A stretch of 64,000 bases of DNA, taken from the NCBI GenBank assembly GCA_951406725.2, contig OX597818.1, positions 88,474,001 to 88,538,000 of the forward strand. Direction: 5' to 3'. The translations under genes and the position numbers were made by a program. Shown piece after piece: positions 9,127-56,158 of the stretch. Origin of the DNA: Octopus vulgaris (Eukaryota). The notes beneath the pieces were generated by a model. It searched no databases and had not been told where the DNA came from. It saw only the letters and a program-made list of their open reading frames with translations. Within the stretch, counting starts at the first letter, position 1. The number at the start of each line of letters is the position of its first letter.

Positions 9127-9903
9127 TAAGTTCACCGTCATCAATTCATCGCACAGAAAGTTTCAGCGTCATCGATTCACCGCAAGGAAAGTTCACCGTC
9201 ATTAATTCACCGCAAGGAAAGTTCACCGTCATCAAGTCACCGCAGGGAAAGTTTACTGTCATCAAGTCACCGCAGGACAAGTACAGCGTCAGTAATTCAC
9301 AGCAGGGAAATTCACTGTTATCATTTCACCGCAGGGTAAGTTCAGCGTCATCATTTCACCGCAAGGAAAGTTAACCGTCATCAAGTCATCGCAGGGAATG
9401 TTTACTGTCATCAATTCACCCCAGGGAAAGTTCACTGTCATCAATTCACCGCAAGGAAAGTTTACCGACATCATTACTCCGCAGGAATAGTTCACCGTCA
9501 TCAGTTCACCGCAAGGAAAATTCATCGTCATCAATTCACCGCAGGGAAAATCCAACGTCATCAATACTCCGCAGGGATAGTTCACCGTCATCAGTTCACA
9601 GCAGGGAAAGTTTATCGACATCAGTACTCCGCAAGGAAAATTCATCGTCATCAGTTCACCGCAGGGAAAGTCCAACGTCATCAGTACTCCGCAGGCATAG
9701 TTCACCGTCATCAGTTCATCGCAAGGAAAATCCATCGTCATCAGTTCACCGCAGGGAAAAATCCAACGTCATCAATACTCCGCAGGGATAGTTCATTGTC
9801 ATCAATTCACCGCAGGGAAAGTACAACGTCCTCAATTCAATGCAGGGAAAGTTCGCTGTCATTAATTCACTGTTGGGAAAGTTCATTGTTATCAATTCAC
9901 CAC
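9127..9903. repeat. 30-bp minisatellite (~25 units, consensus near GGAAAGTTCACCGTCATCAATTCACCGCAG) made of 15-bp subunits
   Basis: Direct reading. Inverted subunits (gtgaactt/gtgaatt) follow at ~9995-10035. Confidence 0.92.
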
Positions 9904-10290
9904 GTTTTTTTATTTTTTTTTAATTTTCCATAAAATAGTTTTTAACTATTAATGGTAAGAAACTTTAGATATATTTTCTCGGTAATCTGTCGCCGTGGTG
10001 AACTTGCGCTACGGTGAATTGGTGGCAGTGAACTTAACTATAATCCAAATATTGATATGGTTTTGAACAGCGTACTCTACAAACATGCATACATACATAG
10101 TGTGTGTATATATATATAATAATGATATAGATTATATATATATATATATATATATACATACATATATACATACATTCATATATGCATATATGGGTACTGT
10201 GTAAACAACATGAAATACGAAAACAAACAAGTTAAATACGCAAACAACGAGAGAAAAATGGGAAACAGGATAAGTAACACAAAGAACGAC

Positions 10291-10350
10291 CCCCTCATCA
10301 GTTGTCGGCAGTCTATCTACCCATTTCGAGCATTCAACGACAATATAAGT
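10291..10350 (-). ncRNA. Candidate non-circularly permuted hammerhead ribozyme
   Basis: Minus strand reads acttAUA|ttgtcg-ttgaatg-ctc-GAAA-tgggt-agatagactgc-cgacaa-CTGATGA-gggg. Stem I 6 bp, stem III 6 bp, stem II 3 bp. Confidence 0.65.
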
Positions 10351-10429
10351 CTTCAAAGACAGTTGTTCCCATAAAATCCAACTTCCAGCACTTCACATGT
10401 CCATCTCCTTTAGGCTTTCACGTCATAAA

Positions 10430-10781
10430 CGCCAGCTTAATTTGATTTGTTTTCAGTCGACAGACATGTTATTTTCTTGTGTTTGTATTTGTAATTGTGT
10501 ACCATATTCTCCGTTTTTTTGTCTTTGTTGCAGAACACATTCACTAGCTTTCTTACAAAAAGCTCTAATGCACTTAGCTTAGACATTTTGGGGGCAATCA
10601 GATCGAATCATCTCAAGTGTAATTGCCCGAAACAGTAAGGACCTCTGGTAACTTGACTGGGGAAAACAGGCCACGAATAACCCGTCTTTTTTTGCCTGTC
10701 CTTCTAATTGTTGTTTCTCCTGTCCGCCTTTGTATCGTCTATCTGTCCGAATGTTTTATTCTTTTCTGTTTCGTTTTTGTT

Positions 10782-10785
<4 letters not shown>
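10430..10785 (+). mobile_element. Interspersed repeat with a GAAA-before-CTGAGGA hammerhead-like layout (family 2)
   Basis: Homologues at 19088-19440 (+), 28480-28630 (-), 44850-45070 (+) and 62470-62588 (-). Confidence 0.7.
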
Positions 10786-18994: not shown

Positions 18995-19652
18995 TACGTA
19001 TGCGTCGGCCAAAATGCTTAGCAGCATTCCTTCTGATTTTACATTCTGAGTTCAAATTCTGCCACGGTCGACTTTGCCTTTGACACACGCCAGCTTAATT
19101 TAATTCGTCCTTAGTCGAAAGACACCTGTTGTTATGACCTGTTATTTGTATTTGTATAACATTCTCCGTTTTTTCCTGTCCTTGTTTTCGCATACATTCG
19201 CTGCTTTCTTGTAAGGACTCTAATGCTCTTAGCTTAGTTTTTCCTTGTGGTTGACCAGATTGGAGCAATCTTTAGTATAACCAGCCGAAATTGCAAAGAT
19301 AATCTGGAACTCGCCTGAGGAAAGAAAACTCCGAAAGACCCGTCCTTATTTTCTTTGTATTGTCTATCTGGATGTTATGTTGTCCCTTTTTTGTATCACC
19401 TAACTGTCTGGATGTTTTGCGTTCTTGTCCCATTTTGTACTTTTGGTATCATGGCCAATGAGGTAAATCTGAGGCATGGTTATTGCTAGTTGAAAACTAC
19501 TTTTTATATGTAATATATACATATATATATATATATAGCCTGCTCGCTTAGCCAGCGGGGTGGCATCATTTGAAGGCTAAAACAATGCGAAGTGCATTGT
19601 GACCAGCGATGTGTAGCAACATCTGATAGCCTGGTCGGTCACGGTGATCACG

Positions 19653-23043: not shown

Positions 23044-23217
23044 GTGCAAGAAAAAGAGAGAATGGCGATTAGCCCAACGCATACACATACATGTATACCT
23101 ATATATATATATATATAATTGTATATGCCCACACACATACAAACATATATATATATCAAGAGTTAAAAACATAATAAATACATAATCAAACGGAAAGCAA
23201 ACAGAGAAGGTTGCTAA

Positions 23218-23279
23218 ATCCTCATCAGTTATCGGTCAAAGGATCAACGCAATTTCGTGCCTTCTACGATATTATTAGC
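23218..23279 (-). ncRNA. Degraded copy of the non-circularly permuted hammerhead
   Basis: gctaAUA|atatcg-tagaag-gcac-GAAA-ttgc...cgataa-CTGATGA-g. The first pair of stem I is mismatched and stem II is weak. Confidence 0.45.
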
Positions 23280-23441
23280 CTCCTCTGATTGCGCCGGCTG
23301 TGAGAAACCGCTGGGAGAATATCGAGCCAATATATATGTATATATATAATAGATAATATCAGGGTAATAAAAGATTATAGAGCTTTTTACTAGCAGTGGC
23401 CTAACGTACAAAAAAATTAGTCAATAGACTATATATTTTTC

Positions 23442-24367: not shown

Positions 24368-24420
<53 letters not shown>

Positions 24421-24600
24421 CCCAACGTTCGAAACGCGGAGTAGATGAAACAGGGGACAACTGATGACGGGATTGTTCTTTATGTTGCCTGTCTCGTTCT
24501 CTATTTGTTTCTTTCGTTGTTCAAAAATTCGTTTTCCATCATTTTATTTTTTTATGTTCACGTTTTTTGACGTCCTGTATCCATATATGCATGTATATGT
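24421..24600 (+). mobile_element. 5'-truncated copy of the permuted-hammerhead repeat (cleavage strand missing)
   Basis: Closely similar to 25298-25510; retains ttc-GAAA-cgcgg...ggggacaa-CTGATGA-cggg. Confidence 0.75.
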
Positions 24601-24686
24601 ATACACACACATATATATATATACACACACACATATATATATATATGTATATATATATATATGTATGTATATATGCGTATATATAT

Positions 24687-24772
<86 letters not shown>

Positions 24773-24781
24773 GCGTATATA

Positions 24782-24814
<33 letters not shown>

Positions 24815-25030
24815 TAATTATATTATTATTTGATCGAACAACACGCATCCATTTCCAAGTGAGTTTTATCTTAATAATTCTGATGCGCACTCTACAAATA
24901 TCTCTTTTCTCCCCTTTATTCTTCTTTCTATCTGTCTTTCTTCTCCTCCTTCTCCCTTCACCGTTCTCTCTCCCTCTCCTTCCCTCACTCTTCCTCTTTG
25001 ACTCTCTCGTTGCTTACACGTGACCAGCAG

Positions 25031-25064
<34 letters not shown>

Positions 25065-25286
25065 CTTTCTTCCTCTTGATTTACAAGAGACAAGACGCAC
25101 TTTTGCCTGTCTCCTATCAAGCTCGTTTCTCCGGTGTTCACCACTTCACCTCGTGATGGCTTAGCAGCCCTTACCGTTTATTTTTACTGTTTTGTTCTTA
25201 CTGTCTTGTTTTTGTTACCACTTTAACCCTCCGCAAATCCCAAATTTTATTTAATTTGCTTTGCGTGAACGACTGGTTTAACGTGG

Positions 25287-25348
25287 TCGCGTCTTGTTCC
25301 ACCGTTCGAAACGCGAAATAGATAAAACAAGGGGCAACTGATGACGGG
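25287..25348 (+). ncRNA. Candidate non-circularly permuted hammerhead ribozyme
   Basis: tcgcGUC|ttgttcc-accg-ttc-GAAA-cgcga-aatagataaaacaa-ggggcaa-CTGATGA-c-ggg. Stem III 6 bp, stem I 7 bp (2 GU), stem II 3 bp (2 GU). Confidence 0.65.
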
Positions 25349-25561
25349 ATTGTTCTTTATGTTGCCTGTCACGTTCTCTATTTGTTTCTTTCGTTGTTCA
25401 AAAGCAAAAGTTTGTTTTCCATGTTTTTTTTTTTTTTCTGTTTTCGTTTTTCATCCTGTACCCGTTTTTTTTTACGTCCTGTACCCATATATGCATGTAT
25501 ATAAACATATATATGTAGGTATGTACATATATGTATGTATATATGCATATATATATATATA

Positions 25562-25622
<61 letters not shown>

Positions 25623-28467: not shown

Positions 28468-28630
28468 CACACACAAAATGGGACAGTTAGGTGATATAAA
28501 AAAGGGATAACAAAACATCCAGATAGACGATACAAAGAAATCAAGGACGGGTGTTTTCTTTCCTCAGTCAAGTTCCAGATTATCTTTGCAATTTCGGCTG
28601 GTTATACTCTCGACTTCTCCAATCTGGCCA

Positions 28631-44576: not shown

Positions 44577-45076
44577 CTAAATTTCAGAAATATTTTTGGT
44601 CGAAAACTCGGACGGCTTCGGCTAATAACTTATTAAGCCAATGAAAAGAATTTTTTCAAATTGACATTGTTTAAACTTGTATTATAGCACCAAAAGAAAA
44701 ATTTCGCGGAACAACTTCAGTTGATTTCAAAGCATATCCGTGACAAAGCTTTTTACTACACCTGTGTATATGAAGAATTATATTGTATTGAAACATGTGT
44801 AGGGATTAAAAAATAGCTGTCCAGCCGTGCTACTTCTTGCTGGCTCTATCTTCTTCCAAGGAATCTAACGCTCTTAGCTTAGTTTTTGCTTGGGGCTGGC
44901 CAGATTGGAGCAATCTCAGCCGAAATTGTGAGGATGATCCGGTTGTTGACTGAGGATAGAAAGCTTCGAATGAACCGTCCTTGTTGTTTTGTATCGTCTA
45001 ACTGGATGTTTTGTTGTCCTTTTTCATCACCTAGTTGTTCGGATGTTTTGCGTTCTAGTCCCATTTTGTATTACAC

Positions 45077-50211: not shown

Positions 50212-50284
50212 GGGGAATTAGCTCAAATGGTAGAGCGCTTGCTTAACATGCAAGAGGCATCGGGATCCATACCCGCATTCTCCA
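50212..50284 (+). tRNA. tRNA-Ala-derived gene or pseudogene with AAC (Val) anticodon
   Basis: Cloverleaf GGGGAAT/ATTCTCC-A with G3:U70, D stem GCTC/GAGC, anticodon stem CTTGC/GCAAG and loop TT-AAC-AT. T49:C65 mismatch; T-loop ATCCATA. Confidence 0.8.
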
Positions 50285-54866: not shown

Positions 54867-56158
54867 CGAGGGATGTTCAATAAGTAATGCCTCTGACCCA
54901 CTTGCAGTTGTTTGATCTAGCTGACATTTTGCATGTGCAATCATTTATATCTCTATAGATAAAGTGACAAATTACAGCTCTGAACTAATTGTGGTTTCTG
55001 ATTTACAGGTGTTTGAACTGAGTCAAGTGTGAAATGGAGCCTGTTGAGTGTCGAGCAGTGATCCGGTTTTTGTATTTGAAAGGACGCACACCACGGTAGA
55101 CTTTTGATGAAATGAAAATAACTTATGGTGATGATGCCCCATCATATGACCTTATAAAACGCTGGCATCGTAAATTCAAACATGGTCGGAACTCTGTGGA
55201 AACAGCTCCCATATCTGGTCGCCCCCCTTCTGCCATTGATGAGGCATCTGTCCGTCAAGTTGAGGCTGCCATTTTGGAAGATCGACGCATAACTATTCGC
55301 CAAATTGTCCATGAGGTCAAGATTAGTACCGGGTCTGTGGAAACTATCATTTATGACCATTTGCATATGCAAAAGGTATCTGCCAGATGGATTCCCAGGT
55401 TGCTCACATCTTTCCAGAAGCAAGAACGCGTCGAGTGCTCGAGGATGAATTTGGAGATATGCCAAGAAGATGAGTCAAAATTTTTCAAAAGACTGATTAC
55501 ACAGGATGAAACCTGGGTTCATCACTATGATCCAGAAACCAAAGTCCAGTCAATGCAGTGGAAGCACCGTGACTCACCTCCTCCAAAGAAAGCAAGGGTG
55601 CAGCCCTCCGCTGGCAAGGTCATGCTCACAATCTTCTGGGACCAGGACGGAGTAGTGATGACAGATTTCCTGGCAAAGGGTACCACAATTACAGGAGCCT
55701 ATTATGCTTCACTTTTGAGGAAATTAAGAGAAGCTATCAAAATCAAGAGGTGGGGCAAGATCAGCAAAGGCATCCTCCTCCTGCAGGACAACGCTCCGGT
55801 CCACAACTCGCGTGTCGCCAGATCAGAAGCACAGGCGTGCAGCTATGAACTCCTCCCCCATCCCAAAACTCTTCTGACCTTGCACCCTCTGATTTTCATC
55901 TCTTCCCAGCCATGAAGTTGTTTTTGAAAGGAAAGCGTTTCCTAGATGATGCAGCCTTGATTTCTGAAGTTACGTCGTGGTTGGAGGACCAAGCTGGGGT
56001 CTTCTAAAAAATCGGTCTCCAGAGCTGCATCAAACGATGGGAGAAATGCATAACTCTGGGTGGTTCCTATGTAGAAAAAGACTAATAACTGTGCCAAGTT
56101 TCGTTGCTCTACTGCTATGGGAAGTGGGTCAGGGGCATTATTTATTGAACGCCCCTCG
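54867..56158 (+). mobile_element. Full-length mariner element (1292 bp)
   Basis: TA TSDs; TIRs CGAGGGATGTTCAATAAGTAATGCCTCTGACCCACTT / AAGTGGGTCAGGGGCATTATTTATTGAACGCCCCTCG. Confidence 0.95.
55034..56085 (+). pseudogene. Mariner (DD34D-type) transposase pseudogene
   Basis: Motifs WIPRLL, ITQDETW, LLQDNAPVH and SDLAPSDFHLF. In-frame TAG at 55097, a frameshift near 55865 and another stop near 56005. Confidence 0.93.

Follow-up and report, generated by a model that had tools for sequence, protein, structure and literature searches.

On the minus strand of the Octopus vulgaris window analyzed here (64,000 nucleotides of contig OX597818.1), the stretch from position 10350 down to 10295 carries the blocks of a hammerhead ribozyme in the order cleavage site, GAAA and CUGAUGA, and by its block order, complete core and three crossing stems this motif (hereafter the 10291 copy) is confirmed, at the level of sequence, as a non-circularly permuted hammerhead of type SGC. 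It probably represents a truncated, drifting copy of an ORF-less SGC repeat, whose source RNAs would cleave themselves and whose monomers would be copied into (TA)n sites by the reverse transcriptase (RT) of a Penelope-like element, likely a Naiad. The permuted topology itself has already been published as type SGC (PMC10085705); thus, what we describe appears to be a fold known before, in a host and role that seem not to have been reported, the new aspects being the animal genome setting and the link to Penelope-like elements.

The components of the motif and the related copies in the window are listed in Table 1. The blocks S, G and C follow one another from 5′ to 3′, and the complete core (CUGANGA, GAAA and a UH with the A15.1-U16.1 pair) is present in the 10291 copy as well as in the nine family consensuses described below. 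The stems that the initial annotation had quoted for this copy and for the sister copy at 25287 are all correct against the sequence. The motif would very probably fold into a hammerhead active site, and cleavage at the predicted site is highly likely in the source elements.

Table 1. Components of the type-SGC motif and related repeat copies in the window (positions are those of the window).
Feature	Position	Strand	Remarks
Whole subfamily-A repeat copy	10180..10381	-	Truncated on the 5′ side, ~37 nt above the cut site; 3′ end complete, continuing into (TA)n; approximate ends
Inverted 5′-truncated copy of a different SGC family, E2	10379..10782	+	Joined head-to-head to copy A
Block S, 5′ part	10344..10350	-	Stem III 3′ strand 10350-10346; U16.1/A17 at 10345/10344
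Predicted cleavage site	between 10344 and 10343	-	After U16.1-A17
Stem I 5′ strand	10338..10343	-	6 Watson-Crick pairs with 10307-10302; compensatory changes across subfamilies
Block G	10319..10335	-	Stem II 3′ strand 10335-10328; GAAA 10327-10324; stem III 5′ strand 10323-10319
Stem III in the 10291 copy		-	5 bp including two copy-specific G-U pairs
G-C linker including AGAT	10308..10318	-	Possible partner: the tail 3′ of stem II, as in the fourth helix of SGC ribozymes; weak covariation
Block C	10284..10307	-	Stem I 3′ strand 10307-10302; CUGAUGA 10301-10295; next a run of G and the 5′ strand of stem II
Stem II in the 10291 copy		-	Either 3 bp in direct register or, past two extra G, 8 bp with a bulge
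Sister-subfamily B core (25287 copy)	25287..25350	+	Predicted cut after 25293
Partial head-to-tail tandem, subfamily B	24420..25570	+	Truncated monomer core 24461, TA tract, full monomer core 25338; ends approximate

A strict S-G-C descriptor finds a single match in the window, the 10291 copy; the 25287 copy escapes it because of extra bases ahead of stem II. A loosened GAAA-then-core pattern gives eight matches, seven of which lie in the repeat families described here, together with an additional decayed match at 23228. No hammerhead was found among the best 150 of the 417 Rfam matches in the window, and nine loci gave no Rfam match at the gathering score. Nested minimum free energy folding of the motif is uninformative (z -0.10), as is expected because the stems cross. 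The individual stems of the 10291 copy have energies of -5.5 (I), -6.4 (II) and -1.8 (III) kcal/mol, with stem III reaching -3.6 kcal/mol in a near-majority copy.

The main support for the fold comes from pairing across families. Among 154 distinct cores from the fetched loci and the window, 78 form a stem I of at least 4 bp and a stem III of at least 3 bp, against a chance expectation of 0.83 (mean of 200 shuffles of the upstream strand; maximum, 4), a fraction that is biased upward because the cleavage block formed part of the queries by which many of the loci had been selected for similarity. Clustering of the cores yields nine families of at least two members, and both stems form at these lengths in eight of the nine consensuses, each with different sequences; consensuses devoid of this complementarity had been named by the initial annotation as the finding that would tell against it. 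Cleavage blocks swapped between families pair in only 2 of 72 cases, both between sister families, and between sister subfamilies whose flanks are nearly identical, both strands of stem III have changed. When 50 copies were picked by a 20-mer excluding stem III, 21 could be parsed, with the variants CUCA/UGAG, CGUA/UACG and CACA/UGUG; 72 of their 84 stem III cells are paired, compared with 60.1 after permutation, and none of 10,000 permutations reaches the observed value (one mis-parsed row, L281, is counted here and left out of alignment A4). A three-stem model over 27 distinct rows gives 88.6% paired cells and 36 double-sided cells (0/500 shuffles), with slid controls at 33-49% paired, in an alignment where 20 of 29 rows were chosen by a 20-mer that fixes one strand of stems I and II. 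Stem II, in the set of subfamilies A and B, is 83.6% paired and contains two pairs with double-sided change. Stems I and III therefore covary as in a type-SGC hammerhead, the covariation consisting of a few subfamily-level events among related sequences; the cross-clade alignment A3 is too gapped for pair counting.

Complementarity that arose by chance in an ancestor of the repeat and was passed to all copies would be compatible with the relatedness of the copies and with nested-fold z-scores near 0. However, each family pairs with its own stem sequences and swaps fail, sister subfamilies show double-sided changes, and the same block order recurs in the sequence-unrelated clades A, E and O. 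This explanation is already largely refuted by the swaps, the sister-subfamily changes and the three-stem test, and we regard it as highly implausible. The earlier suggestion that the permuted topology was selected rather than coincidental is thus borne out, on stronger evidence than the two-copy comparison from which it came: the stems do pair in both the 10291 and 25287 copies, but these copies are related, their subfamilies aligning over ~300 nt (86-109 bits). Similarly, pairing is kept through the stem III changes of the 10291 copy, but both of its G-U pairs are specific to this copy and depart from the majority, so that the changes that had looked strongest are partly drift. The AGAT linker motif, described as kept, is indeed common to A, B and E, but it is missing from several other families and therefore reflects descent.

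Stem II is less regular than stems I and III. It adjoins the core, with at most 1-2 extra nucleotides, in A, B and the 10291 copy. This is not so for family E, where it is weak and nearly lost, nor for J, E2, E3 and H, where 4-7 nt set it off from CUGANGA. Eckert et al. assume 1-2 nt between CUGANGA and stem II (PMC10085705), and the variable insert after A9 bears on whether block C, as is assumed, tolerates no interruption. In the window, SGC cores of the E clade that carry 5 nt between CUGANGA and stem II are seen at 19250-19325 (+), 28560-28620 (-) and 44900-44960 (+), as well as at loci L199 and L125; at 23215-23290 (-) is a decayed member of family H, in which ~7 nt separate CUGAUGA from the stem II partner. 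The subfamily majority has one extra base between A9 and G10.1; the consensus of the tested SGC ribozymes also has one at this position (PMC10085705), and an extra base after A9 is cited as tolerated (PMC4209133). The putative fourth helix is 84.5% paired and rich in G-U pairs, and its covariation (21/500) gives no support. A competing hairpin, which spans GAAA and is incompatible with stem II, has 82.8% of its cells paired and some covariation (4/500).

This hairpin raises the question of whether the fold is kept as a structural signal, either for RT recruitment or as a slow or switched-off ribozyme that cleaves poorly and is held inactive by the GAAA hairpin. The hairpin is conserved, with energies of -5.2 kcal/mol in locus L006, which holds a near-intact A copy (L006:1530-1610), and -3.2 kcal/mol in the 10291 copy, stem II is irregular in several families, and the minimal hammerheads of Penelope elements are reported to be of low activity in vitro (PMC4209133). 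On the other side, the catalytic core and the UH are kept in nine of nine family consensuses, all five SGC RNAs that were expected to work did cleave (PMC10085705), and stem II of subfamily A consists of 8 bp with a bulge at -6.6 kcal/mol. We consider a purely structural role improbable, and a self-cleaving source RNA remains the preferred reading.

The carrier of the motif can be described as a high-copy, ORF-less repeat of ~750 bp that ends in (TA)n, is often tandem and resembles a non-LTR retrozyme. In subfamily A the 3′ end is fixed, lying ~200 nt beyond the core and adjoining (TA)n, and the 5′ ends vary, the furthest being about 530 nt upstream of the core; no ORF was found in the clade A loci that were read. 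Full A units are arranged head-to-tail with cores 752 and 793 bp apart, and families B, E and E2 are arranged likewise, including the 24461/25338 pair of the window, which has a core period of 877. An upstream monomer end was recognized by eye in at least eight of the 23 loci listed. Units measure 750-880 bp including the TA tract, only dimers or partial tandems were observed, and a second, inverted copy is present at 5 of 30 loci. The repeat thus has the ORF-less monomer, single hammerhead and tandem arrangement of a non-LTR retrozyme, but not its type I hammerhead or its monomer length of 150-450 bp, and it is likely to work like a retrozyme, yet as other than a classical member of that group.

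A feasible model may be that read-through of tandem copies yields a multimer RNA, in which each SGC core would cut after UH and release monomers that may circularize; a Penelope-like RT would then prime at a nicked (TA)n site and copy the monomer RNA, often stopping early or switching template, which would generate the truncated, tandem and inverted forms. A monomer or circular RNA is a rather probable intermediate. Among 50 of 100 listed copies, three have 5′ ends within -5 to +5 of the predicted cut, with ~1 expected, which is neither a clear pile-up nor significant; two of the three lie at the site within the TA ambiguity and one at +5, and TA microhomology could explain the ends at the site. 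At loci L148, L263 and L308, copies follow (TA)n immediately and begin at the predicted cut site, which does not reach significance among the 50 copies sampled. Four runs presumed to be RNA hold contigs of the family, and the contigs show neither ends nor strand.

Several further features of the window were observed. A 5′ fragment of U4 snRNA at 19443-19503 (+) (Rfam 52.1 bits; gathering, 46) lies between the 3′ end of a family E copy and its (TA)n, a position that fits template switching. A splice-donor-like motif followed by a long pyrimidine tract occurs at about 24850 and, near the 5′ end of an A monomer, at locus L154 (minus), and recalls the 5′ UTR intron of Penelope-like elements. Just past copy A, at 9289-9933, is a tandem array with a 30-bp period that contains several CTGATGA on the minus strand and no GAAA in SGC spacing. 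A 271-aa frame at 55100-55915 (-) resembles, by eye, a mariner-type transposase, and a tRNA-like match (54.2 bits) at 50212-50284 (+) is possibly a SINE head.

The 10291 copy itself is an ordinary relic. Measured against the majority sequence of the 30 loci closest to it, it diverges by 6.0% (median, 4.6%). Both stem III G-U pairs, a 3-nt deletion and a G after CUGAUGA depart from the subfamily-A majority, in which stem III comprises 4 bp, all Watson-Crick, and CUGAUGA is followed by an extra A. The E2 copy to which it is joined has a decayed core (CUGGGGA) at about 10611-10663, and no host gene was identified around the 10291 copy. Of 42 sampled copies long enough to include the cleavage block, only 5 have perfect stems I and III plus GAAA, a pattern consistent with decay once inserted and with selection on the source elements; such selection is supported by the comparisons presented here, with none visible on the 10291 copy. 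Because its core is intact and its stem energies are near those of a near-majority copy, the 10291 copy might still cleave if read through, although we consider its own cleavage doubtful.

Across the 2.8 Gb genome, the pattern YCGAAAN{17,29}CTGANGA (GAAA followed by CUGANGA) gives 33,716 matches, compared with 4,194 for the pattern read backwards; the excess of about 29,500 is only approximate because the control differs in dinucleotide make-up. One 20-mer of subfamily A occurs in 839 exact copies and a 20-mer from the published Naiad_Ovul end has 301 matches, with no match for either control. First-look candidates for the families of the window number 3866, 2746, 1486, 321 and 1901, figures that are not copy numbers. 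The clade-A pattern has no match in viral contigs.

The link to Naiads is provided by family O, an SGC family different from clade A, which corresponds to the 3′ end of Naiad_Ovul with a putative SGC core. At loci L247 and L261, GIY-YIG and RT remnants, a 3′ UTR, an SGC core and TA are found in cis; on pieces of sister loci, Pfam detects GIY-YIG (E 0.0015) and RVT_1 (E 0.0014), both below the cut-off, and the Naiad ORFs in the octopus genome are decayed remnants. An N-terminal GIY-YIG plus RT ORF in cis was found for family O only and not in the clade A loci that were read. Clades A, A2, B and J show no nucleotide homology to family O, with scores at background, and clade A none to the Naiad 3′ UTR. 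Among the matches listed, no piece of a Naiad ORF lies upstream of any A core, and the listed Naiad ORF matches outside the O loci arose from a repeat inserted in one query. Short motifs of clades A and E gave no real match in the Naiad supplement (PMC8557442). There is thus no detectable sequence link between subfamily A and Naiad, and the link of clade A would be indirect. Clade A does share with Naiads the (TA)n target, 5′ truncation, partial tandems and inverted copies. These properties are typical of other Penelope-like clades too. For Naiads, (TA)n targets, heavy 5′ truncation, partial tandems and adjacent inverted truncated copies have been reported (PMC8557442).

An element other than Naiad may therefore be considered as the helper, with clade A as a passenger retrozyme that carries a real ribozyme and merely has its topology in common with Naiads. 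A young, active Penelope-like family, read at L258:1545-3896, L259 and L260, has a 784-aa frame comprising an RT together with a GIY-YIG at the C terminus, and its terminal repeat contains, by eye, a motif that resembles a hammerhead in type I order and whose core is altered. As a parent of clade A this element was rejected, since no SGC core was present in the three loci read; as a helper it is possible, given its many open frames, the copies that also end at TA tracts, the lack of a sequence link between clade A and family O, and the reduction of octopus Naiads to remnants. However, its repeat shows the type-I-order motif with the altered core rather than an SGC order, the A unit has no homology to the body of the element, and SGC order is found at Naiad 3′ ends. 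Mobilization of clade A by such a non-Naiad element seems unlikely to us, and Naiad as the helper of clade A is slightly favored.

Naiads have been reported to lack canonical hammerheads, with eight half-core cases that include Naiad_Ovul (PMC8557442). In the Naiad consensus file of that study, 35 of the 62 CTGATGA matches and 30 of the 91 matches to the other three cores were inspected by eye and uncontrolled, the remaining CTGATGA matches including those in a motif table. Most matches have no visible header and were assigned to Naiads by their position in the file. Among those examined, ten are in S-G-C order with stems I and III; one of the ten has a stem I mismatch, three are near-identical and two are octopus entries, and in six no stem II partner was seen adjoining the core. 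In six entries of the file the order is C-S-G and stems I, II and III all pair well; two of these six stand immediately ahead of nematode Naiad headers.

It is tempting to speculate that Naiads are not devoid of hammerheads, that many carry permuted ones, of type CSG in nematodes and of type SGC in octopus and further lineages, and that the octopus genome contains tens of thousands of Naiad-dependent retrozymes, a proposal for which we see the chances as even. Under this proposal, the permuted Naiad hammerheads would have been missed because descriptors based on circular permutation cannot see non-circular ones, and some octopus SGC retrozymes could conceivably tolerate 4-7 nt between A9 and stem II. 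The success of Naiads without hammerheads was taken to suggest that Penelope-like elements may be able to do without these ribozymes (Craig et al., 2021; PMC8557442); if Naiads carry permuted hammerheads, this argument weakens, and animal genomes would be the largest known reservoir of SGC and CSG folds.

The SGC and CSG permutations are known from 583 metatranscriptome sequences and from two unique ones of metagenomes, no known organism being among the sources, with type CSG represented by only two unique sequences (PMC10085705). As published, the RefSeq 85 search of Eckert et al. (2023) found no such RNA in the genomes of known organisms (PMC10085705), and a literature search that covered few subscription papers found the term "type-SGC" in Eckert et al. 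only and no publication that describes SGC or CSG hammerheads from animal genomes or from Naiads. An SGC hammerhead in an animal genome, with many covarying subfamilies, would supply a host, a likely job and a large natural library of variants.

In comparison with known systems, the octopus repeats share with Naiads the (TA)n targets, 5′ truncation, partial tandems and inverted copies, whereas clade A differs in having no ORF and no detected homology to family O (PMC8557442). With the animal non-LTR retrozymes they share ORF-less, low-GC monomers that carry one hammerhead each and occur both in tandem and dispersed (PMC7229834; Li et al., 2026, bioRxiv 10.64898/2026.07.22.740005). Non-LTR retrozymes have been proposed as non-autonomous relatives of Penelope-like elements (PMC7229834; bioRxiv 10.64898/2026.07.22.740005), and Li et al. 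(2026) relate them to Penelope-like terminal repeats, the main text, as accessible, making no mention of SGC, octopus or pseudoknot (bioRxiv 10.64898/2026.07.22.740005). Known retrozymes have type I hammerheads, monomers of 150-450 bp and demonstrated circular RNAs (PMC7229834; bioRxiv 10.64898/2026.07.22.740005); by contrast, the octopus repeats are 750-880 bp long, carry a non-circularly permuted ribozyme and are known here from genomic sequence alone. The closest counterparts are the type-SGC ribozymes (HRIMA-1 and SGC variants), for which cleavage was validated at 0.007-0.19 per min (Eckert et al., 2023; PMC10085705) and which share the S-G-C order, the complete core, the three crossing stems, the short link between stem I and stem II and the one extra base between A9 and G10.1 (PMC10085705). 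The octopus families differ in their bulged or displaced stem II, in inserts of 1-7 nt after A9 and in a fourth helix that lacks covariation support; and whereas the published SGC ribozymes come from metatranscriptomes only and were proposed to belong to circular RNA agents (PMC10085705), those of the octopus are chromosomal repeats with stem sequences of their own.
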